Counted from the stretch's first letter, positions 2,290-41,961 are shown. The stretch: 43,950 nucleotides of DNA from a virus (IMGVR_UViG_2778261535_000013:1-43950); one strand, 5' to 3'. Numbers and translations: made by a program. Notes: a model not told the origin generated them from the sequence alone.

Positions 2290-2580
2290 TCACTGAGACA
2301 CTATTAAAAGCGCGTTTTCCAGTCCGGCAAATGGATCTGATACGCCTTCTGTCTGCTCTTGTCCCCACTGAAGAAGCGCATCATTCAGTGGTACTTTGAC
2401 ACCCTGTGCACCGTAAACCGCAGAAACTATCTGGGCAGCCCGGATATCAGCCCGCTCGTCACCCAGCGGGCTGAACCTGTCAAATTCTGCCCACATCATG
2501 ATTTCTGATGCGGACATTTCCCTGCGTAACTCTGACAATGTGCGCCCCATCCTGAGCGCCAGCATCATCAGAAAACGCAC
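2290..2580 (-). CDS. tail assembly chaperone T-frame segment, probably expressed as a G-T fusion by -1 frameshift
   Basis: ORF lies in the -1 frame relative to the upstream G-like ORF with no stop between the slippery run and this ORF; position between major tail and tape measure as in lambda G/GT. Confidence 0.6.
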   Translation of the reverse strand: MRFLMMLALRMGRTLSELRREMSASEIMMWAEFDRFSPLGDERADIRAAQIVSAVYGAQGVKVPLNDALLQWGQEQTEGVSDPFAGLENALLIVSQ

Positions 2581-2591
2581 CCCCGGAAGCG

Positions 2592-2978
2592 CTACTTTTT
2601 TTTAACCTCGCCGGCATCACTGATCAGTTCCAGAGACTGCCGAAGAAGCCGCGCATGCACCGGGCCATACACGGCAATCACCTGTTCACGATCATCCTCT
2701 GAAAATACAGGTTGCAGTCCGGTATCACACAGAACATCAATGAACAGTTCAACATCTGCCTCCAGATTTCGGCGGGCGCGCTCAGCAACGGATAACGGTG
2801 TCTCATCATCTTTTGCTTTAACGATCTCCTGCCAGCGCAACCAGGCTTCTGCAGAAGGTTCCCGTAATACAACCGTTGCCCCTTCCCATTCAGGCACATC
2901 AACAGTTTTATGGCGAAACCCCGACATCGTTGCCAGTGCCAGATTACGGATATTTTTAGTCATCACATCTATCCTCAT
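2592..2978 (-). CDS. tail assembly chaperone (lambda gpG-like)
   Basis: 128 aa ORF immediately downstream of major tail gene and upstream of tape measure; ends ...GEVKKK at the slippery run. Confidence 0.7.
   Translation of the reverse strand: MRIDVMTKNIRNLALATMSGFRHKTVDVPEWEGATVVLREPSAEAWLRWQEIVKAKDDETPLSVAERARRNLEADVELFIDVLCDTGLQPVFSEDDREQVIAVYGPVHARLLRQSLELISDAGEVKKK
2596..2603 (-). promoter_or_regulatory. candidate programmed -1 frameshift slippery site (A8 followed by G on coding strand)
   Basis: coding strand reads GAG GTT AAA AAA AAG TAG at the 3' end of the G-like ORF; shifting -1 here reads through into the T-frame ORF. Confidence 0.5.
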
Positions 2979-3682
2979 TAACTGACGGTAACAGTGCAGG
3001 AAGTGGAGGTCACCTTGTTAACCGGGCTTGCTGAATCAGAAATCTCGCAGGTATACGCACCGGCATCACCGGATGCTGCTGATGCCTTACTGAACGTTGC
3101 CGCCGTCTGTCCGGAAACAGGAGAACCACCTTTCTTCCAGACATAAGAATAAGGCGGCACACCACCGGCAGCCTCAACCACCATTTCGAGTTTCGAACCG
3201 GAAGCAACCTGCAGCGTGCTGTTTAAATCAACCTTCACTTTCAGCGGAACTGTCGTCAGCACAGGTTTACCTTTCAGACGCAGGGAAAACGTTGCAGCCA
3301 CAACACCATTGGTTCCTGCAGACCAGGTATGCTGACGCACCTCTGCCATAAAGGTAAATCCGTTGCCTGACGGAAAAATAACTTTAAAGCCATACGTGGT
3401 GTCATTGTCATAGGCACTGCGCAACGCGTTCTGGGCAGCATTGAGGTAAAAGTTGCCTGACATGGAAATCTCTGACGCGGCACCAAGACCGTTAATATTT
3501 TCCTGCTCAACAGAACACAGCGTGGTGACATCAATATCCTGCTTTTGTCCTGCGGTAAACTGCACCTCTTTGATTGTACAGCTCAGGCCAAGATAGCTGG
3601 CAGAATCCAGGGTTTCTGCTGTTACCGGTGCAGACGAAATCATAATTTTCGTCAGTTGCGAACGCTCAAAATTAGAGGACAT
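2978..3682 (-). CDS. major tail protein with C-terminal Ig-like domain
   Basis: 234 aa; position upstream of G/GT; C-terminal region (…VEAAGGVPPYSYVWKKGGSPVSGQTAATFSKASAASGDAGAYTCEISDSA…) resembles bacterial Ig-like domains found on lambda gpV-type tail proteins. Confidence 0.75.
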   Translation of the reverse strand: MSSNFERSQLTKIMISSAPVTAETLDSASYLGLSCTIKEVQFTAGQKQDIDVTTLCSVEQENINGLGAASEISMSGNFYLNAAQNALRSAYDNDTTYGFKVIFPSGNGFTFMAEVRQHTWSAGTNGVVAATFSLRLKGKPVLTTVPLKVKVDLNSTLQVASGSKLEMVVEAAGGVPPYSYVWKKGGSPVSGQTAATFSKASAASGDAGAYTCEISDSASPVNKVTSTSCTVTVS

Positions 3683-3695
3683 ACTCGTCTCCTGA

Positions 3696-3722
3696 AAATA
3701 AAAAAACCCGCCAGCGGCGGGT
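3696..3722 (-). terminator. hairpin plus U-run upstream of major tail gene
   Basis: minus-strand CCCGCCGCTGGCGGG stem-loop followed by a T-run, then RBS CAGGAG and the major tail ATG. Confidence 0.35.
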
Positions 3723-3742
3723 GGGTAAAATCATTAATGACC

Positions 3743-4087
3743 TCAGGCTATTACCTGGAATTCAAGCGTGGCTCTGCTCAGACGGGAGTCAGGATCATAA
3801 CCCTGCGTTTTAGAAATAACGGAGGGTGCCAGTTTTCTTACCGCATCAAGCGCCTGCTCACGGATATCATCTGCGTCATCAGGTACTGTTGCCCAGACAT
3901 CGATCTGCACGGTAATTCTGGATTCAGCCTGACCATCAAGCACATCAGACGCAGTGTCAGACACCACAGAAAATACCAGCCATGGCGGAGATACCGCAGG
4001 CTTTCCCTCCGTCAGCGGGACCACATAAGGATAAACCTGTCCTCCGGCCAGTTGAGACAGCAGGGAATACAGTGTGGTCTCTCTCAT
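3743..4087 (-). CDS. putative tail terminator / tail completion protein
   Basis: 114 aa ORF in the syntenic position between the HK97 gp10-like gene and the major tail gene; no motif-level identification. Confidence 0.4.
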   Translation of the reverse strand: MRETTLYSLLSQLAGGQVYPYVVPLTEGKPAVSPPWLVFSVVSDTASDVLDGQAESRITVQIDVWATVPDDADDIREQALDAVRKLAPSVISKTQGYDPDSRLSRATLEFQVIA

Positions 4088-4533
4088 TTACTTAAGACCT
4101 CATCAATAGCCTGATTCATTCGCTGTATGGCAATCTGTGCTGCCAGTTCCTCTGTCGTATCGAAAGCCGGGCGAATGAACGGATGCGCGGGCATGTTTAC
4201 CGTTCCCAGCTCCACAAAGCGCCAGTAAAACGCATTTCGGGGATCACTGGCTTTCATGCTGTTATCACTGTTTCCGGTTCGCAGGTTCCGTCCACGAATG
4301 TGGACACCCGAGATAATTTCCCCCCGACGCTTTGAACGCTGAGTGAGAACAACCACATTTTTCTTCAGTTTCCCGGTTCGCTCCGGCGCACGTTCAACAA
4401 CTGCATCCCGCATAACTTCAGCACCGGCACGGGTGGCATCGCGCAGTACCTTATTGTTTTCTGCCCTGCTGAGCGTCTCCAGATCCCGTGCAATATCCGC
4501 CAGACCTGAAAAATCAAGACTGAAATCCATCAC
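4084..4533 (-). CDS. HK97 gp10-family tail component
   Basis: 149 aa; sequence features (…GTVNMPAHPFIRPAFD…) and position match the HK97 gp10 family. Confidence 0.65.
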   Translation of the reverse strand: MMDFSLDFSGLADIARDLETLSRAENNKVLRDATRAGAEVMRDAVVERAPERTGKLKKNVVVLTQRSKRRGEIISGVHIRGRNLRTGNSDNSMKASDPRNAFYWRFVELGTVNMPAHPFIRPAFDTTEELAAQIAIQRMNQAIDEVLSK

Positions 4534-34201: not shown

Positions 34202-34627
34202 CTAGTAACGTCTAAAATACCTAACATTTCCCTGATAAAATGCCAGAATGCGCTGCATAACTTCGCTCTTCCGGCACTCGCGACAGATTATGTTTAGACA
34301 ACTATCGTAGCGACGTATTTCTCCGTCAGGTAATGACCAGATAAGGTCCGGATCAACCGCAGATGGTTTCTTCAGCTTTGCCCTTGAGAGCTTTTTACGG
34401 GCATTTTGCCAGTCCTTACGCGCCTGTTCAGACGGGAATAACCCGTAACCAGAGTTGTATACATCGCCGCTGGCAACCAGCTCTCTTGCGAGAACGCTCA
34501 TCAGATATCTTGTCGCACCTGTCTTGACTTCCAGTTGCCGTAACGTCTCACGCCCACTCTGGCGTACGAGTTCAACAACCTGTCCTTTAATTTTTTCCCG
34601 CTCTTCTTGTGTAAAAACTTTTGCCAC
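34202..34627 (-). CDS. hypothetical protein
   Basis: 141 aa ORF downstream of the replication initiator gene; basic with a C-terminal Cys cluster. Confidence 0.4.
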   Translation of the reverse strand: MAKVFTQEEREKIKGQVVELVRQSGRETLRQLEVKTGATRYLMSVLARELVASGDVYNSGYGLFPSEQARKDWQNARKKLSRAKLKKPSAVDPDLIWSLPDGEIRRYDSCLNIICRECRKSEVMQRILAFYQGNVRYFRRY

Positions 34628-34667
34628 AAGCCCTCCTGAAAATTACCTCATGACCAGAAATTAACAC

Positions 34668-35744
34668 TTACCCCCTGAAGCCCGGCGGAATTTCGTTATC
34701 CGGTTCAGAAATATGATTCACACAACGCTGGTTGTTCGTGCCGCTTACCGGGAGCAACCAGGGGTTCTCAAAATTCCGGTCCGGTCCAAAAAACGTCGTC
34801 GCTCGCTGAACAAATTCCGTTCCCGTTTTCCCGGTAGCCGCCAGGTATCTTGCGTAACGCCTCACGCCATCCAGCATGGCCTCTGGTGGCACCCCCTCGC
34901 GTAATCTGGCCTTCCAGGCACTGAAAGCTGATTTCTTCGGGTTTGCTCCGGCACGCAACGGGTACTCCCGCCAGACCTGTTCGAACACATCCGGATAATC
35001 CACTCGTCCCACAGACTGCCCGGTGTTTTCCGGGACTACCCGATCGGCTTCCCGCTGAATGGCGGAATCGGCTTCGGGCTGCTGCAGTTGGTGTGATTGC
35101 TCCAGCCTTGCGGTCATCACCTGCTGCACAGCGCCCGAATCGGCTTTCAGCGCATACGCTGAATCGGCTTCCGGTGTCGTGCCTGCTGGCTGACCAAGAT
35201 TGACGGTCTGAACATCCCCTGCCTGGTTCGTGGCGTTTTTTACGCCATGGACCATAGTGTTTTGATCTTCTTGATCTGTATCTTTATCTGTATCTTTATC
35301 TGTCGTGACTCGTCGTGACATGTGCGTGACATTTCGTGACGCGCCGTGACAATCGCCATTTTGTTCCCGCTTTCTTTCCCTCTCTCGCTGCGCCCTCTTG
35401 CGCTCTGCAGGAGATTTTGCGGTTTGCGAAATATTGCCGTTGTCCTCTTTAAGCACCTGGCGTTTTTCCCATCCAGTGATTAAATCACCATCAAGTACCC
35501 GCCCCTGCATCGTCTGCAAAATTGAATCAATTACCTCTTCTGTCACGTCGAGCGCACTTGCCAAATCTTCTGTCGTGACATCAATGTGACCTCGCGTGAC
35601 ATTTCGTGACGCGCTCACCAGGAGGTGGATATACACTGCCATCACTGTTGCAATTGGCTGCCCTGACACCCTGGCAATTGTTCGCCACTTAGGGTCATTT
35701 GGCATGTCATGCCATAATCTGAGCCAGGCGTTAGCCATACTCAC
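34668..35744 (-). CDS. replication initiator (lambda O-like role) containing internal iterons
   Basis: 358 aa; two arrays of CGTGAC repeats inside the coding sequence; C-terminal …FEQVWREYPLRAGANPKKSAFSAWKARL… motif seen in phage replication proteins. Confidence 0.55.
   Translation of the reverse strand: MSMANAWLRLWHDMPNDPKWRTIARVSGQPIATVMAVYIHLLVSASRNVTRGHIDVTTEDLASALDVTEEVIDSILQTMQGRVLDGDLITGWEKRQVLKEDNGNISQTAKSPAERKRAQRERERKREQNGDCHGASRNVTHMSRRVTTDKDTDKDTDQEDQNTMVHGVKNATNQAGDVQTVNLGQPAGTTPEADSAYALKADSGAVQQVMTARLEQSHQLQQPEADSAIQREADRVVPENTGQSVGRVDYPDVFEQVWREYPLRAGANPKKSAFSAWKARLREGVPPEAMLDGVRRYARYLAATGKTGTEFVQRATTFFGPDRNFENPWLLPVSGTNNQRCVNHISEPDNEIPPGFRG
35303..35349. repeat. iteron array 1: five CGTGAC copies at about 10-11 bp spacing
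   Basis: direct reading, inside the replication gene. Confidence 0.55.
35543..35610. repeat. iteron array 2: four (C)GTGAC copies plus one inverted copy
   Basis: direct reading, about 230 bp from array 1, inside the replication gene. Confidence 0.5.
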
Positions 35745-35809: not shown

Positions 35810-36235
35810 TCAATGTACTGCCACAGCATTTCCTGCCGGGCCACCACGGTTCATCTGATTGAAACCGGCGATTGCCACTGCGACAAAATCATCAGCGTCT
35901 CTCACCAGTCGCTCCCGCGTCTCCACCAGCTCCCGAAAATAAGCTGAACTGTGGCTGCGCATTCTGGCCACCAGCAAAGGTGGCATTGCCTTTTCGATCG
36001 CTGGTAACAACGCCTGAATTTTTTCAACTGCATCAGGGGTGTCTTTCTCTACCCAGCGGAAAATTTTCTGGGTATTGCGAGCCAGGGCTTCCGGATGGCT
36101 GTCGTCATACAGTTCTGGGAACGTCATACCCAGTTCAAAATAAGCCCTGGTTATTTCAGCTGCCGGAACTTTTTCACCGTCCGGATGCGCCCAGGCATTC
36201 ATCGCCATGCGGATGTGTTCATGCTTGATTTTCAT
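35810..36235 (-). CDS. YdaT-like protein (CII-like position)
   Basis: 141 aa beginning MKIKHEH…; follows the Cro-like gene as ydaT follows ydaS in Rac-type prophages (from memory). Confidence 0.5.
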   Translation of the reverse strand: MKIKHEHIRMAMNAWAHPDGEKVPAAEITRAYFELGMTFPELYDDSHPEALARNTQKIFRWVEKDTPDAVEKIQALLPAIEKAMPPLLVARMRSHSSAYFRELVETRERLVRDADDFVAVAIAGFNQMNRGGPAGNAVAVH

Positions 36236-36500
36236 GAATCAAGCTCCTAGAAAGTGGTTGTGTTAACGTTTTGGTATCTTCCAGCTCGGGCCAAATATTC
36301 ATCCAATCAAAAGGCCTTAGTTGCTGACGTGTAACTTCACCATTACTGGCTCGCTCAATAAGGACACATAACGATGCCCCTAACACTTGACCTTTACTCA
36401 ATGCCTTTCTTAGATAACCGATGCTGGTACCACACTCGCATGCAAACATACGCTGTTCATCTGACGAAAGAGAATTGAGAAATATTCTTAATTCTTCCAT
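36219..36500 (-). CDS. Cro/YdaS-like HTH regulator
   Basis: 93 aa; …CECGTSIGYLRKALSKGQ… HTH-like; divergent from the repressor gene. Confidence 0.55.
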   Translation of the reverse strand: MEELRIFLNSLSSDEQRMFACECGTSIGYLRKALSKGQVLGASLCVLIERASNGEVTRQQLRPFDWMNIWPELEDTKTLTQPLSRSLIHENQA

Positions 36501-36600: not shown

Positions 36601-37020
36601 ATGGACAAATATGAATTTAGACGACAGCAACTCATCAAAATTCGTGATGAGAAATGCGATGGTAAAGCGGTTAACGTGGCCAGAAAGATCGGGCGCGAGC
36701 CTTCTTATGTATCAAGAATGTTGTACCCAGAGGGGAAAAAGGGAAAAAAACGGATCGCTGATGATATGGTGGAGATTATCGAAGAGTCCTTTGGGTTACC
36801 CCGGGGATGGATGGATGGTATCGTTTCATCATCAACGAACACAGCCTCCAGTTATGAAACAAGGGTTCTAACGCCACGACAACGTATTTTTTTAGATCTC
36901 TTAGACGAACTGCCAGAAAGTGAAGCGGATAACTTATTAAAAACTCTTGAAGAGAAAAAACAGTATTACAATATGATCTACGAAGAAATCCGTAAAAAGA
37001 AAGCACAAAACGCATCATAG
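36601..37020 (+). CDS. prophage repressor (DicA/RacR-like HTH protein, no peptidase domain)
   Basis: 139 aa; HTH …VARKIGREPSYVSRM…; C-terminal …LTPRQRIFLDLLDELPESEAD… resembles DicA-type repressors (from memory). Confidence 0.55.
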   Translation: MDKYEFRRQQLIKIRDEKCDGKAVNVARKIGREPSYVSRMLYPEGKKGKKRIADDMVEIIEESFGLPRGWMDGIVSSSTNTASSYETRVLTPRQRIFLDLLDELPESEADNLLKTLEEKKQYYNMIYEEIRKKKAQNAS

Positions 37021-37062
37021 CTCACCAAACAACTAGTCACCAGTTAAGACACCGCAAAAAGT

Positions 37063-37099
37063 TACCCATGGGTATTTACTTTTTAAATACCTATGGGTA
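37063..37099. promoter_or_regulatory. second operator-like cluster downstream of the repressor gene (palindromes TACCCATGGGTA and TACCTATGGGTA)
   Basis: direct reading; shares the TACCCA half-site with the 36528-36563 repeats. Confidence 0.35.
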
Positions 37100-37285
37100 T
37101 CCTTCTTTTCATACCAACCCACCCCGCCCCACAGAATGCAGGGCAATACTTCGAGTTACCAGGCAGTGGTCAGGGGTTAAGTAGCCAGCCCGAGGCGTAA
37201 GAACATGACGGCAGGGTTCAACTTTAATAACTATGCAGCAGGTTTTTGTTCCGCTACCCCGGCGTTAAGGGGAAATGAGGTCAAC

Positions 37286-37441
37286 ATGGATACTATCGAT
37301 CTTGGCAACAACGAATCTCTGGTGTACGGCGTGTTTCCCAACCAGGACGGCACATTCACCGCGATGACGTATACCAAAAGCAAAACGTTTAAAACCGAAA
37401 ATGGTGCCCGTCGCTGGCTGGAAAGAAACTCAGGTGAGTGA
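37286..37441 (+). CDS. YdfA-like small protein
   Basis: 51 aa from MDTIDLGNNESLVYGVFPNQDG…; first gene of the rightward early operon. Confidence 0.45.
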   Translation: MDTIDLGNNESLVYGVFPNQDGTFTAMTYTKSKTFKTENGARRWLERNSGE

Positions 37442-37572
37442 TATGGATTTCGACACAATCATGGAAAAGGCTTACGAAGAATACTTCGAAGGTCTTGCCG
37501 AAGGCGAAGAAGCTCTCAGCTTCAACGAATTTAAACAGGCGCTTTCCAGTTCGGCAAAATCTAACGGCTGAT
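37441..37572 (+). CDS. YdfB-like small acidic protein (43 aa)
   Basis: ATG overlapping the previous stop (TGATATGG); MDFDTIMEKAYEEYFEGLAEGEEALSFNEFKQALSSSAKSNG. Confidence 0.35.
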
Positions 37573-37600
37573 AAGCGAAGCAGCACCGCGAGGAATCAGT

Positions 37601-37819
37601 ATGCAGAAACGAGAACCCGTCATCATCGCGCCAGACTATACCGATGATGAACTTTATGAGTGGATGCGCCAGAAAATTAATGCAGCGCAGGATCTGAAAT
37701 GGGCCAATGAAGCCAGGGCTAAGCAGGCTGAAAATCTGTCCGCTCTGGAGCAGGATATCACCAATCTGGAAAAAGCAGCGGCATTAAGCATTGCCAGAAT
37801 GATTACATACCCACGTTAA
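37601..37819 (+). CDS. YdfC-like protein
   Basis: 72 aa ORF with coiled-coil-like sequence. Confidence 0.45.
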   Translation: MQKREPVIIAPDYTDDELYEWMRQKINAAQDLKWANEARAKQAENLSALEQDITNLEKAAALSIARMITYPR

Positions 37820-37841
37820 TAGCTAACCAACGAGGCTAATA

Positions 37842-38249
37842 ATGGAATTTAAAGATTTACCAAAAGAAATCCAGACAATTGCTGCAACGACTCTCGGTGA
37901 TAGTCTGGTGAAAATTGACCCGGCATACACCAAAAAAGAAACCATCGATAATATGGTTCGTAATGTGCGCAATGCTTTTTCTGGGCTATATGGTTCTGAT
38001 AATCAAAAGCAGGAAAGCGATGTTAATGAACGGGTAATTTCTGTTTGCGTGAATGGCCATGTTCTTTCATCAATCAAAACAGAAACAGCGACAGTCTTCG
38101 ATTGCCTTTGCATTGTACAGAGCCTTGTTGATGCCCTGTTTCGTTCAGTGAATTTAGAAAATGATGCAAATCTGCGAGGGCGCACAATAGCACATCCATA
38201 TGCACATACTTTAGGCTCTGTGGATATCAAAGATCCCACAAATCTTTAA
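37842..38249 (+). CDS. hypothetical protein in AT-rich block
   Basis: 135 aa ORF with AGGCTAATAATGG start context; AT-rich relative to flanks. Confidence 0.4.
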   Translation: MEFKDLPKEIQTIAATTLGDSLVKIDPAYTKKETIDNMVRNVRNAFSGLYGSDNQKQESDVNERVISVCVNGHVLSSIKTETATVFDCLCIVQSLVDALFRSVNLENDANLRGRTIAHPYAHTLGSVDIKDPTNL

Positions 38250-38460
38250 TGAAATAGTTAACGCGAATTGTACTTGCTCTTTCAGTTGCTTTCAGAATAC
38301 GCGTTGAAACTGCTGGCGGTAATTTGGTATTCCATTTATTAAAATCATGCCCGGGGAAGTACTCTTCGAAAATACTTTTAACTGCAGACTCGCCTATTGA
38401 AATGCTGCTTACCATGCGATTTTGATAAAGGCATTTAGCAATAAGAGTTGATTTTAACAT
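38227..38460 (-). CDS. hypothetical protein in AT-rich block, convergent with previous gene
   Basis: 77 aa ORF; its 3' end overlaps the 3' end of the plus-strand 135-aa ORF. Confidence 0.35.
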   Translation of the reverse strand: MLKSTLIAKCLYQNRMVSSISIGESAVKSIFEEYFPGHDFNKWNTKLPPAVSTRILKATERASTIRVNYFIKDLWDL

Positions 38461-38793
38461 TCACCCTCCTGAGGGTTGGTAATTAAGGAGTTCTCCACGG
38501 GTGAGGTGGAGTGCGTGCGCCGGACACGGGTGAGCATCCGGCACTGACAGTTTACTGAAAGGATATTTCCATGAAAAGTCAGACCATAACGCGAAAGCGC
38601 ACGGCGAGGTAGCTGGTTCATAGATAGCCTGTCGTTAAATTTTCGTCGACCGTGCGCTTCCGGTTGTGGCACTCCGCGAAATGGCGCGGCGGTAAGTATG
38701 GCGGGGTTATTCCTTCCCCGTTGAGGACACCGGGTTGTCAGGTTGACCATACGCTTAAGTGACAACCCCGCTGCAACGCCCTCTGTTATCAAT

Positions 38794-38846
38794 TTTCTGG
38801 TGACGTTTGGCGGTATCAGTTTTACTCCGTGACTGCTCTGCCGCCC
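38794..38846 (+). ncRNA. dicF: DicF small RNA
   Basis: TTTCTGGTGACGTTTGGCGGTATCAGTTTTACTCCGTGACTGCTCTGCCGCCC followed by TTTTT matches the DicF sRNA sequence as recalled; lies immediately upstream of dicB as in Qin. Confidence 0.7.
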
Positions 38847-39020
38847 TTTTTAAAGTGAATTTTGTGATGCGGTGAATGCGGCTAAGCGCACGCGGAACAG
38901 TTAAAACCAAAAACAGTGTTATGGGTGGATTCTCTGTATCCGGCGTTAATTGTTAACTGGTTAACGTCACCTGGAGGCACCAGGCACCGCATCACAAAAT
39001 TCATTGTTGAGGACGCGATA

Positions 39021-39209
39021 ATGGAAACGTTATTACCAAACGTTAATACGTCTGAAGGTTGTTTTGAAATTGGTGTCACTATCAGTAACCCTGTATTTAC
39101 TGAAGATGCCATTAACAAGAGAAAACACGAACGGGAGTTATTAAATAAAATATGCATTCTTTCAATGCTGGCCCGTTTACGTCCGATACAAAAAGGATGC
39201 TGGCAATGA
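39021..39209 (+). CDS. dicB: cell division inhibitor DicB
   Basis: 62 aa METLLPNVNTSEGCFEIGVTISNPVFTEDAINKRK…KICILSMLARLR… matches DicB. Confidence 0.85.
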   Translation: METLLPNVNTSEGCFEIGVTISNPVFTEDAINKRKHERELLNKICILSMLARLRPIQKGCWQ

Positions 39210-39397
39210 ATACAGCATTTGCACTTGTTCTGACAGTTTTTCTTGTTTCCGGAGAGCCAGTTGATATTGCAGTCAGTGTTCACAGAACAATGCAGGAATG
39301 TATGGCAGCAGCAACCGAACAGAAAATTCCCGGTAACTGTTACCCGGTCGATAAAGTTATTCACCAGGATAGTAACGAAATCCCGGCAGGTCTTTAA
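39206..39397 (+). CDS. ydfD: YdfD-like protein
   Basis: 63 aa MNTAFALVLTVFLVSGEPVDIAVSVHRTMQECMAAATEQKIPGNCYPVDKVIHQD…; start overlaps the dicB stop. Confidence 0.75.
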   Translation: MNTAFALVLTVFLVSGEPVDIAVSVHRTMQECMAAATEQKIPGNCYPVDKVIHQDSNEIPAGL

Positions 39398-39489
39398 AAC
39401 AGTTCCGTAATAAACATCCGATTTCATTCTTATATGCCAGCAATGGCAGGGATTTGTTCACCATTAAATCTGTAATGAGGTAAAACAAA

Positions 39490-41961
39490 ATGAGTAAAGT
39501 CTTTATTTGCGCCGCCATTCCGGACGAACAGGCAATAAAGGAAGAAGGTGCAGTCGCTGTAGCTACTGCCATTGAAGCCGGTGATGAACGTCGCGCCCGC
39601 GCAAAATTTCACTGGCAATTCCTGGAACATTATCCGGCTGCTCAGGACTGCGCTTATAAATTTCTTGTCTGCGAGGATAAACCCGGTATACCCCGCCCTG
39701 CCCTCGATTCCTGGGATGCTGAATATATGCAGGAAAACCGCTGGGATGAGGAGTCTGCTTCCTTTGTCCCGGTTGAGACTGAATCAGATCCGATGAACGT
39801 CACTTTTGACAAGCTGGCCCCTGAAGTACAGAACGCTGTCATGGTTAAGTTCGACACATGTGAAAACATCACTGTTGATATGGTGATTAGCGCACAGGAA
39901 TTGTTGCAGGAAGACATGGCAACATTCGACGGCCATATCGTTGAAGCGTTGATGAAAATGCCAGAAGTAAACGCCATGTATCCGGAGCTTAAGCTGCATG
40001 CCATCGGGTGGGTTAAGCATAAATGTAAGCCTGGTGCCAAATGGCCCGAAATTCAGGCAGAGATGTGCATCTGGAAAAAACGTCGCGAAGGTGAACGCAA
40101 GGAAACCGGAAAATACACGTCTGTTGTTGATCTCGCCCGCGCCAGACCCAATCAACAGAACACTGAAAATTCAACAGGAAAAATCAACCCGGTCATTGCT
40201 GCCACTCATCGCGAATACAAGCAGACATGGAAAACACTGGATGACGAACTGGCCTACGCTCTCTGGCCTGGTGATGTGGATGCCGGAAACATTGACGGCA
40301 GCATCCATCGCTGGGCAAAAAATGAAGTTATCGACAACGACCGCGAAGACTGGAAGCGTATCTCGGCATCAATGCGCAAACAGCCTGATGCCCTTCGCTA
40401 CGACCGCCAGACTATTTTTGGCCTTGTCCGTGAACGTCCGATCGACATTCACAAAGACCCTGTGGCACTGAACAAATACATTACTGAATACCTGACTACA
40501 AAGGGCGTGTTTGAAGATGAAGGAAGAAATCAGAGCGCAACTGATACTCTCTCGTCGCCAGTACCAGAAACTGATGCAGTGGAAACGGCAATTCCGGACA
40601 ACGAAAAAACCGAATGCAAAGTGGAAGTCGAACCATCTGTAGAGCGTGAGGGGCCGTTCTACTTCCTCTTCACCGACAAGAATGGCGAAAAATACGGTCG
40701 CGCAAACAAACTTTCTGGTCTGGATAAGGCGCTGGCTGCCGGGGCTACTGAAATCACGAAAGAAGAATATTTCGCCCGCAAAAACGGTACATACTCAGGT
40801 TCACAACAAAATACTGGTGCATCTGACACGACCGCACAACCAGAGCCGGTAAAAGTTACCGCTGACGAAGTAAACAAAATTATGCAGGCAGCCAATATCA
40901 GCCAGCCTGACGCCGATGAACTGCTTGCAGTATCACGTGGTGAATTTGTTGCAGGGATTAGCGATCCGAATGATCCGAAATGGGTGAAGGGGATTGAAAC
41001 CCGCGATTCTGTGAACCAGAACCAGCAAGAAACGGAACAGAACGACCAGAAAGCGGAACAAAACAGCCCAAATGCGTTACAAAACGAGCCAGAAACGAAA
41101 CAATCCGAACCAGTAGCGCAACAGGAACCGGAAAAAGTCTGCACCGCCTGCGGTCAGAGCGGTGGCGGCAACTGCCCTGATTGTGGCGCGGTGATGGGCG
41201 ACGCAACATACCAGGAAACATTCGATGAAGAGAATCAGGTTGAAGTTCAGGAAAATGATCCGGAGGAAATGGAAGGCGCTGAACATCCACACAAGGAGAA
41301 CCCTGGCGGCAATCAGCATCACGCCAGCGATAATAAAACTGGCGAGGCGACAGATCCCTTAATTAAGGTGAATGGTCATTATAAGCTCACATCCACCAGC
41401 AGAGCGGGGATTCATCTGATGATCGACCTTGAAACAATGGGAAAAAATCCCGATGCCCCGATTATCTCAATAGGCGCAATATTTTTCGATCCACAAACCG
41501 GAGAGATGGGGCCGGAATTTAGCAAGACCATCGATCTGGATACTGCTGGCGGAGTCATTGATCGTGACGTCATTAAATGGTGGCTGAAGCAATCACGTGA
41601 AGCGCAGTCTGCCATTATGACCGATGAAATCCCGTTAGATGATGCACTACTGCAATTGCGGGAATTTATCGACGAAAACTCCGGTGAATTTTTTGTTCAG
41701 GTCTGGGGTAATGGGGCCAACTTCGACAACGTGATTTTACGCCGTTCATACGAACGACAGGGTATCCCCTGCCCGTGGCGCTACTGCAACGATCGCGATG
41801 TACGCACAATCGTTGAGCTGGGGAAAGCCATAGACTTCGATGCCAGAACTGCTATCCCATTCGAAGGTGAGCGCCATAATGCACTTGATGACGCTCGTTA
41901 CCAGGCAAAATACGTTTCAGCTATCTGGCAAAAACTGATCCCGAGTCAGGCTGATTTTTAA
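39490..41961 (+). CDS. large prophage protein with C-terminal DnaQ-like (DEDDh) 3'-5' exonuclease domain
   Basis: 823 aa; exo motifs …MIDLETMG…, …WGNGANFDNVIL…, …HNALDDARYQ…; central CxxC…CPDC zinc-ribbon-like motif; acidic Gln-rich linker. Confidence 0.6.
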   Translation: MSKVFICAAIPDEQAIKEEGAVAVATAIEAGDERRARAKFHWQFLEHYPAAQDCAYKFLVCEDKPGIPRPALDSWDAEYMQENRWDEESASFVPVETESDPMNVTFDKLAPEVQNAVMVKFDTCENITVDMVISAQELLQEDMATFDGHIVEALMKMPEVNAMYPELKLHAIGWVKHKCKPGAKWPEIQAEMCIWKKRREGERKETGKYTSVVDLARARPNQQNTENSTGKINPVIAATHREYKQTWKTLDDELAYALWPGDVDAGNIDGSIHRWAKNEVIDNDREDWKRISASMRKQPDALRYDRQTIFGLVRERPIDIHKDPVALNKYITEYLTTKGVFEDEGRNQSATDTLSSPVPETDAVETAIPDNEKTECKVEVEPSVEREGPFYFLFTDKNGEKYGRANKLSGLDKALAAGATEITKEEYFARKNGTYSGSQQNTGASDTTAQPEPVKVTADEVNKIMQAANISQPDADELLAVSRGEFVAGISDPNDPKWVKGIETRDSVNQNQQETEQNDQKAEQNSPNALQNEPETKQSEPVAQQEPEKVCTACGQSGGGNCPDCGAVMGDATYQETFDEENQVEVQENDPEEMEGAEHPHKENPGGNQHHASDNKTGEATDPLIKVNGHYKLTSTSRAGIHLMIDLETMGKNPDAPIISIGAIFFDPQTGEMGPEFSKTIDLDTAGGVIDRDVIKWWLKQSREAQSAIMTDEIPLDDALLQLREFIDENSGEFFVQVWGNGANFDNVILRRSYERQGIPCPWRYCNDRDVRTIVELGKAIDFDARTAIPFEGERHNALDDARYQAKYVSAIWQKLIPSQADF

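Follow-up and report, generated by a model that had tools for sequence, protein, structure and literature searches.

The Qin prophage of Escherichia coli K-12 has the gene order ydfA-ydfB-ydfC-dicF-dicB, in which a gene-free interval of 340 base pairs (bp) separates ydfC from dicF. In the window, by which we mean the whole viral stretch of 43,950 nucleotides (nt) IMGVR_UViG_2778261535_000013:1-43950 with coordinates counted from its first letter, two further open reading frames (ORFs) occupy this interval: orfA on the plus strand, encoding 135 amino acids (aa), and orfB on the minus strand, encoding 77 aa. They converge and overlap at their 3' ends, and the locus raises the question of whether they belong together and what they might do for the prophage. 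An initial annotation had placed both ORFs exactly where we found them and had described an AT-rich pair inserted into a Qin-type operon, whose overlap could allow antisense coupling as in some toxin-antitoxin or exclusion modules. Our analyses indicate with high confidence that the two genes form a mobile cassette and are inherited together in temperate lambdoid phages of Enterobacterales; orfB is antisense in this cassette, and the 3' ends always overlap. Databases already listed both genes, as hypothetical proteins and under PHROGs whose function is unknown; new here are the conserved convergent overlapping two-gene unit at the junction of the immunity region with the early-left operon and the confidently predicted orphan fold of orfB.

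Identity and distribution of orfA and orfB

The orfA product matched phrog_1363 (E 2.4e-46, residues 1-130 of 135) and that of orfB phrog_10348 (E 1.1e-47, residues 1-77 of 77), both families of unknown function, and in related genomes both genes are everywhere annotated as 'hypothetical protein' (orfA is WP_032166907.1). A search of 1.84 billion representatives returned 157 clusters of orfB homologues at E <= 0.001, nearly all of them standalone proteins of 74-80 aa. The length of 77 aa is kept at 55-72% identity in Klebsiella, Dickeya, Xenorhabdus, Serratia, Yersinia, Morganella and Salmonella, and divergence from the window copy is ~0.3 at non-synonymous sites as against 0.6-0.8, near saturation, at synonymous sites. 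The PHROG matches, the constant length of orfB and its low non-synonymous relative to synonymous divergence mark both ORFs, on comparison of their sequences, as genuine genes and not chance ORFs. One public source names an orfB cluster 'dGTP triphosphohydrolase'; this name found no sequence, profile or fold support and was treated as a mis-annotation.

The cassette was found in 646 of 5426 complete E. coli genomes (about 12%), and the K-12-type junction without it in 2850 of the same set. The E. coli carriers include enterohaemorrhagic strains (EHEC) of O157:H7, O26, O111 and O145, where it lies in the ompW prophage, porcine enterotoxigenic strains (ETEC) and phage Evi, in which it stands upstream of kil and not of dicF/dicB. 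It also occurs in prophages of Klebsiella, Serratia, Proteus, Dickeya, Citrobacter, Hafnia and Yersinia. The initial annotation had considered that the two genes might turn out to be standard conserved members of this operon with known functions; the pair is indeed not rare, but neither gene has a known function.

Co-inheritance of orfB with the C-terminal core of orfA

In Dickeya, Serratia and Klebsiella the convergent partner of orfB is a protein of 77-79 aa, which aligns over its full length with orfA residues 57-135 at 37-43% identity. This region, which we call A-core, had 105 homologues in a profile search, with the motif VNG..(15)..AVAADY..(20)..LE.EANASGKTI.H..F..FGS.PI, while residues 1-56 of orfA (the N-module) are missing from the 75-80-aa partners of other genera. 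Gene arrangement was checked at 95 orfB loci obtained from genome contigs, IMG/VR and exact look-ups, which include Escherichia, Serratia, Klebsiella, Dickeya and Proteus; many are near-identical E. coli copies and the set amounts to ~20 independent lineages. A convergent, 3'-overlapping A-core gene was present at 91 of these loci, the other four being frameshifted or cut by a contig end, and the overlap measured 23 bp in 87 cases and 26 bp in 4.

The association extends to distant forms. A divergent orfB from Citrobacter is paired with a correspondingly divergent A-core through an overlap of 51 bp, and an orfB relative of 32% identity has a convergent 73-aa partner, overlapping by 33 bp, which ends in the A-core motif FGSLPI. 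The coupling also holds in Hafnia-type, Citrobacter and zinc-finger-fused variants. Context searches of IMG/VR for distant orfB relatives recovered none; two exact look-ups succeeded. Distances between orfB sequences were correlated with those between their A-cores, with a Mantel r of 0.84 for 36 unique pairs and of 0.52 for 21 divergent pairs, values that none of 2000 permutations reached. Occurrence is asymmetric: A-core was seen without orfB in at least two lineages, a Serratia 208-aa form (L101/L102) and an E. coli 201-aa form (L012), and no intact orfB was found without A-core among the 95 loci.

Two unrelated accessory genes might co-travel simply through adjacency and overlap, as a result of genome compaction and of membership in a shared recombination module. 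The early region of a lambdoid phage is a mosaic of small genes with no relation to one another, the N-module of orfA recombines with unrelated C-termini, and correlated divergence can be explained by linkage alone. However, the pair is kept at all 91 intact loci despite entirely different flanks, following CI in Serratia, Klebsiella, Dickeya and Hafnia, following ydfC in E. coli and preceding kil in phage Evi, and both the divergent Citrobacter orfB and the 32%-identical relative retain a matching partner. Companionship through adjacency of this kind is considered very unlikely.

Anatomy of the convergent pair

The features of the locus are collected in Table 1.

Table 1. Coordinates of the convergent gene pair and its surroundings in the window.
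Feature	Position	Strand	Remarks
Two-gene cassette	37840..38473		634-bp indel relative to K-12 Qin; GC 0.393
orfA	37842..38249	+	135 aa, ATG start; early-left (dicBF operon) strand; phrog_1363; from the ORF list
orfA N-terminal module	37842..38009	+	residues 1-56; E. coli and Salmonella prophages only
A-core	38010..38249	+	orfA residues 57-135; conserved partner domain of orfB
orfB	38227..38460	-	77 aa, ATG start; antisense to early-left operon; phrog_10348; from the ORF list
Convergent coding overlap	38227..38249		23 bp; TCAAAGATCCCACAAATCTTTAA; quasi-palindrome
orfA Shine-Dalgarno	37832..37835	+	GAGG; 6 nt 5' of ATG; in flank retained by K-12
orfB Shine-Dalgarno	38465..38469	-	GGAGG; 4 nt 5' of ATG; within cassette
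Region upstream of orfB	38474..38580	-	shared with K-12; inverted repeat CTCCAC-N7-GTGGAG at 38493-38511
ydfC	37601..37819	+	left neighbour; phrog_1744; annotated YdfC in 99.9%-identical genomes
DicF small RNA	38795..38846	+	right neighbour; Rfam RF00039, 76.7 bits, E 5.6e-16
dicB	39024-39209		downstream of DicF; PF05358; followed by a DUF1482 gene

The AT-richness reported at the outset was borne out, since the cassette has a GC content of 0.393 against 0.476 and 0.491 in equal-sized flanks and 0.498 in the whole window, a value this low being reached in only 3% of 634-bp segments. The two proteins end alike, both in IKD..[DN]L. The hairpin AAAGAT-N7-ATCTTT of the overlap was evaluated as a bidirectional terminator and rejected, being too AT-rich and not called by terminator prediction.

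In the window orfA is the fourth gene of the dicBF operon. To reach dicF and dicB, an early-left (dicBF) transcript has to run antisense through the entire orfB gene, and the antisense reach exceeds the 23-bp overlap. No terminator-like site was predicted on the plus strand between 37100 and 39100, and Rfam at a permissive threshold returned only DicF between 37700 and 38900. Of the coupling initially suggested for the pair, the analysis supports that the two genes behave as a unit, as the 91 loci and the Mantel correlation indicate; its antisense part would involve much more than the overlap itself.

Comparison with the K-12 Qin prophage

The cassette is embedded in the operon known from K-12 Qin as ydfABC-dicF-dicB-ydfD, the reference form with neither gene between ydfC and dicF, and the papers on the dicBF operon that were consulted make no mention of the pair. 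When K-12 Qin, which lacks the pair, was aligned with the window by BLASTN, its positions 2471-3062 corresponded to window 37248-37839 (97.3% identity) and its positions 3063-4089 to window 38474-39500 (96.3%). The two blocks are contiguous in K-12 (3062|3063), and the gap in the window spans exactly 37840-38473; the arrangement assumed in the initial annotation is thus confirmed, and the whole difference at this point is one clean 634-bp indel. The left edge of the cassette falls 2 nt before the orfA ATG and the right edge 13 nt past the orfB ATG, so that the cassette holds the orfB Shine-Dalgarno but has no space for an orfB promoter. The cassette is also independent of this operon, as other genera carry it beside CI-type repressors with no dicF or dicB.

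Whether the pair was 'inserted', as first described, is a different matter: it is extra relative to K-12, but an insertion is not established. The tetranucleotide TAAT stands at both junctions (37840-37843 and again from 38474) and only one copy is left in K-12, which matches the residue of a microhomology deletion at a short direct repeat. K-12 also retains an orphan orfA Shine-Dalgarno in the left flank, and the right flank common to both retains CTCCACCTCA...GTGG, which resembles the best-conserved core of the element found upstream of orfB outside E. coli, although this resemblance to the canonical element is faint and partial only. On these three grounds the K-12 arrangement is, on balance, probably a derived state that arose through microhomology-mediated deletion, rather than the ancestor of a gain in this prophage. 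Even with no function assigned to the pair, the 'standard' picture of the dicBF operon is corrected, the K-12 form being probably a deletion derivative.

Position beside the repressor and signals upstream of orfB

Outside E. coli, the layout read from loci L002-L009 and L099-L106 consists of a Cro-like gene, a CI-type repressor (HTH_3 plus Peptidase_S24), a gap of ~120-300 bp, A-core and then orfB in opposite orientation, followed after 130-500 bp by early-left genes such as RdgC, YfdP, DUF2303 and ParB-like. The gap between CI and A-core contains matches to the pL promoter consensus, TTGACC-18-TATTAT in L007 and TTGACG-16-TAAACT in L005, which are consensus matches only; that in L005 lies after a terminator-like hairpin behind CI. 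Gene order and pL-like matches together suggest that in these genera A-core is the first early-left gene and orfB is antisense to the operon. A protein of 172-174 aa with a HIRAN domain (PF08797) occupies a rexAB-like slot immediately downstream of the CI-type repressor and just before A-core, co-oriented with CI, in L099 and L101-L104, a trait of Citrobacter- and Serratia-type prophages.

The cassettes outside E. coli share across genera an element of ~65 nt on the 5' side of orfB, TTGTGTGCCTG-TCTTTTCACCACaTCAGGCtcGGTGGTAtCTTGG-GTTCtCACACAACCAAGAAG, whose conservation exceeds that of synonymous sites in the coding regions. It comprises an extended -10 (TGgTATCTT) ~30 nt before the ATG, a weak -35 and a spacer inverted repeat CCAC-N9-11-GTGG, and from its sequence it is probably the orfB promoter with a possible operator, or else a structure formed by the early-left transcript. 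A second, outer inverted repeat reads TTGTGTG...CACACAA. The element was seen in L003-L009, L014, L083-L097, L103 and L105, ~95 nt upstream of the orfB ATG (3915-4003 in L007).

Some further features were observed in the leader between ydfC and dicF. A 10-bp direct repeat, CACGGGTGAG, stands at 38496-38505 and 38525-38534, and an E. coli prophage group (L065, L068, L071) has a shorter leader that fits a deletion between the two copies, the CTCCAC/GTGGAG repeat being lost too. A strong Shine-Dalgarno-like AAGGAG at 38478-38483, just right of the cassette junction, is followed by no obvious ORF, and a 13-codon ORF rich in Arg and Lys, MKSQTITRKRTAR (38571-38612), with an AGGA site, precedes dicF; both are found in K-12 too.

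This layout would also suit a device acting mainly in cis, in which convergent transcription from an orfB promoter throttles early-left read-through, here into dicF and dicB, the two proteins being secondary or unrelated. The early-left transcript must cross orfB in antisense before reaching DicF at 38795 and no plus-strand terminator is predicted between, dicF and dicB of K-12 are co-transcribed with ydfABC (PMC5069750), and a conserved non-coding element precedes orfB in other genera. Protein-level constraint on both genes (for orfB, non-synonymous divergence ~0.3 with near-saturated synonymous divergence, a constant 77 aa and 157 clusters) would be needless for such a device, however, and no convincing orfB promoter was found in E. 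coli. A role in cis as the main function is therefore judged quite unlikely.

Structure prediction and fold searches

The orfB protein was predicted as a five-helix domain with a predicted local distance difference test score (pLDDT) of 97.3 and a predicted template modelling score of 0.87. The model is helical and soluble, with a grand average of hydropathy of -0.13, and its fold has no relative in PDB or BFVD. The conserved residues of orfB include C10, W43/N44 and F70-W75. The AlphaFold2 model of orfA was poor (mean pLDDT 63.5); in it, two helices at the N-terminus are followed by a disordered linker (residues 46-59) and then by a hairpin with two helices that corresponds to A-core. A fold search with this low-confidence model gave uninformative matches. 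In the models, then, orfB appears well folded and A-core alone poorly modelled, as is often the case with partners that fold on binding, which is a weak hint of interaction.

Neither protein matched PDB by sequence or by profile, and no DNA-binding fold was detected in either. Pfam searches with 57 members of the A-core family yielded a single domain, a ClpX-type zinc finger, carried by two members with an N-terminal extension, and those with the alternative C-terminal partners of the orfA N-module and with the ORFs that replace orfB found no match. A-core was considered as an N-like antiterminator and the idea was discarded: the position fits, but the protein has no arginine-rich motif and its charge is acidic to neutral.

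Proposed mechanism

Since homology gave nothing, the argument for a mechanism rests on anatomy. We tentatively favour, as possible rather than probable, a mechanism in which orfB is a lysogen-expressed effector directed against lytic growth, A-core its early cognate neutraliser, and convergent transcription a reinforcement of the switch. In the lysogen, with the early-left promoter under repression, a promoter of its own would drive orfB, and the product of orfB, a small soluble effector harmless to the host, would block the lytic growth of infecting phages by exclusion or abortive infection. Upon prophage induction, or infection by a relative bearing the cassette, early-left transcription would lead to synthesis of A-core, which would bind and neutralise orfB and so confer cognate self-immunity. 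The same transcription, running head-on through the whole of orfB, would lower its expression through transcriptional collision and antisense pairing.

Four features weigh most. The two genes are inherited as a unit, with an obligatory 3' overlap. The location of A-core on the repressed early-left strand suggests that it would be made only in lytic development. Orientation against the lytic early operon, together with the promoter-like element outside E. coli, points to orfB as an accessory gene expressed in the lysogen; a placement antisense to the lytic genes of a prophage has been described as typical of accessory loci (PMC7067206). Finally, the presence of A-core without orfB, and never of intact orfB without A-core, suggests that orfB would be harmful to the phage unless the antidote is present.

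The same coupling and orientation data could be read with the roles reversed. A-core or orfA would then be a toxic protein that takes over the host early, as Kil or DicB do, and orfB a safety catch made constitutively in the lysogen against leaky early-left expression and overridden by strong early-left transcription on induction. The neighbours DicF, DicB and YdfD of the same operon are toxic when expressed (PMC5069750), and outside E. coli a conserved promoter-like element belongs to orfB itself. The asymmetry of occurrence is, however, the opposite of what this arrangement would lead one to expect, with the caveat that L012 has another small convergent ORF in the place of orfB, and the well-folded partner is orfB, not A-core. 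Reversed roles are therefore regarded as unlikely.

Several results weigh against the mechanism in which orfB is the effector and A-core the neutraliser. In Pfam neither protein matched a family at E <= 0.01, SieB included; PADLOC-DB v2 gave 0 families at E <= 1; and NCBIfam had no family for either, only a meaningless PpsR match at E 0.037. With the negative outcome in PDB and BFVD, the homology and structure searches lend no support to the toxin-antitoxin or exclusion function suggested at first. In E. coli only the CTCCAC-N7-GTGGAG repeat is kept, the canonical orfB promoter element being largely gone, and a minus-strand sigma-70 scan upstream of orfB returned as its best candidate a non-significant TTTTCA-17-TAAACT (38577..38549), whose position weight matrix score of 10.2 compares with a median of 8.2 and a 95th percentile of 11.8 for shuffled sequences. 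Among 50,697 sequenced phage-isolate records the cassette was found in 12, all of E. coli prophage type, and these records gave no support to the orphan antidotes that the mechanism predicts in free phages. The opposite charges of the E. coli proteins (isoelectric point 5.3 for orfA and 9.5 for orfB) were dismissed as evidence of interaction, as they are not conserved family-wide, and tight physical linkage alone could produce both co-inheritance and correlated divergence. The protein accessions of orfA and orfB were found in no paper, and the mechanism, with its expression timing, toxicity, protein interaction and anti-phage activity, is a prediction from sequence.

Relation to known systems

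Among the closest known systems, sieB/esc/sas of lambda and P22 shares the gene layout. In lambda, sieB (34482-35036, plus strand) is convergent with and abuts N (35037-35438, minus strand) next to OL/pL, and orfB occupies the same slot, antisense in the early-left operon and convergent with the first pL gene near the repressor. This correspondence of position holds outside E. coli; in the window, orfA stands fourth in the dicBF operon. SieB is a membrane-associated protein of ~190 aa, in contrast with the soluble helical orfB of 77 aa, and Esc is an in-frame truncated SieB product, whereas the candidate antidote here is a separate protein encoded on the other strand. The likeness of orfB to SieB is one of gene layout alone, as no sequence or fold similarity links sieB to orfB or orfA. 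SieB is an exclusion function that the prophage expresses, and Esc and the antisense RNA sas counter it (PMC12197685, PMC7067206).

Prophages that combine defence with cognate self-immunity are known from BstA/aba in Salmonella BTP1 (PMC8585504) and from TerI/anti-TerI in Listeria (bioRxiv 10.1101/2025.02.27.640495). The logic proposed here is alike, with an anti-phage protein made in the lysogen next to the regulatory region and an element that spares the phage's own lytic cycle, and cognate BstA-aba pairs resemble the paired divergence of orfB and A-core variants. However, BstA/aba shows no homology to the present pair, and aba consists of 63 bp of DNA where the pair has a protein; TerI/anti-TerI belongs to Gram-positive phages, has another gene arrangement and is not homologous either. 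Both lack a conserved convergent coding overlap. The pair of orfB and A-core stands outside the SieB/Esc/sas, BstA/aba and TerI/anti-TerI systems.

Type I toxin-antitoxin loci such as par/fst of pAD1, txpA/RatA and bsrG/SR4 have convergent, 3'-overlapping transcripts, one a non-coding RNA antitoxin and the other encoding a short hydrophobic peptide toxin. The convergent 3' overlap, which allows antisense pairing, is shared with orfA/orfB, but the latter are both conserved soluble proteins, with neither a small hydrophobic membrane toxin nor a non-coding antisense RNA. Type II modules, such as RelBE in sister prophages, likewise consist of two small linked prophage proteins; they are same-strand operons, whereas orfA and orfB are convergent in the window and orfB and A-core at 91 of the 95 orfB loci, and no homology to toxin or antitoxin families, no DNA-binding antitoxin fold and no PADLOC-DB v2 defence model was found for either protein.

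A classical addiction module, in which the lysogen produces a stable toxin as well as a labile antitoxin and the prophage is thereby stabilised, could be read from the two small proteins, their tight genetic coupling, the RelBE pair in the same region of related prophages and the opposite charges in E. coli. Against it, the genes are convergent and not co-transcribed, and the early-left partner would be repressed in the lysogen, so that no antitoxin would be made continuously. Toxin and antitoxin families in Pfam, NCBIfam and PADLOC gave no match, and the fold searches returned nothing that binds DNA. Its solubility sets orfB apart from the hydrophobic toxins of type I systems, whose antitoxin is a non-coding RNA, whereas orfB is partnered by a conserved protein. 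Such a module is highly improbable here. Of the two functions initially suggested, the architecture better suits an exclusion gene expressed in the lysogen with self-immunity, while the classical toxin-antitoxin types do not fit. The remaining probability lies with something outside the tentatively favoured mechanism and the four alternatives considered.

A broader claim, which we regard as doubtful, is that A-core and orfB constitute a previously undescribed prophage system of defence and self-immunity, with a 77-aa effector of new fold encoded antisense in the early-left operon and made in the lysogen, a protein antidote made only in lytic growth and the obligatory overlap as a transcriptional toggle, which in EHEC and ETEC would gate read-through into dicF and dicB. 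If the proposed mechanism holds, the pair would be a compact new example of how a prophage can protect its host and yet leave its own induction unhindered. The effector is without structural relatives, and the obligatory convergent coding overlap, kept from 100% to 32% identity, is without a described equivalent. As the cassette lies directly upstream of dicF in E. coli, it could alter the yield of DicF and DicB from the adjoining copy; DicF has been linked to EHEC virulence control, according to a title in the reference list of PMC10448788.

Variants of orfA and of the surrounding region

The N-module of orfA (MEFKDLPKEIQ...NVRNAFSGLY) was also found on proteins of 124-212 aa with unrelated, unannotated C-termini (P0042, P0044, P0045, P0051) and matches phrog_9419, 2151, 6937 and 33007 as well; in the O157 copy of orfA its first ~30 residues are substituted. 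The position just after ydfC looks like a polymorphic locus in prophages of E. coli and Salmonella, where one constant head is joined to exchangeable tails.

Other lineages prefix A-core with a ClpX-type zinc finger or with an extension of ~120 aa. The zinc finger is of C4 type (PF06689, best E 9.6e-10) and N-terminal in the A-core proteins P0114, P0148, P0150 and P0151; the corresponding loci L103 (3501-3902) and L104 are still paired with orfB, with a 26-bp overlap. In L012 (E. coli B7A) the 201-aa orfA variant (3001-3606, plus strand) consists of A-core plus a C-terminal extension, and orfB is replaced by an unrelated minus-strand ORF of 63-66 aa (3584-3784), again with a 23-bp 3' overlap. 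This 201-aa form is common in E. coli and Salmonella (P0003-P0029); RefSeq calls the L012 copy a truncated pseudogene, which the breadth of the family contradicts.

The immunity region of the window is of Rac/Qin type, with a YdaS-like Cro (weak PF15943 match), a YdaT-family gene and a DicA-like regulator of 139 aa (phrog_5736, with no Pfam match), these genes lying at 36219-36500 (minus strand), 35810-36235 (minus strand) and 36601-37020 (plus strand). The closest relative, L001 (ETEC1749), carries a relB/relE pair (2924-3395) between the DicA-like regulator and the DUF1391 (ydfA) gene. In the window the corresponding interval, 37020-37205, is 185 bp long and has no space for relB/relE; a palindrome with a 16-bp stem and a T-run stands at 37063-37099.

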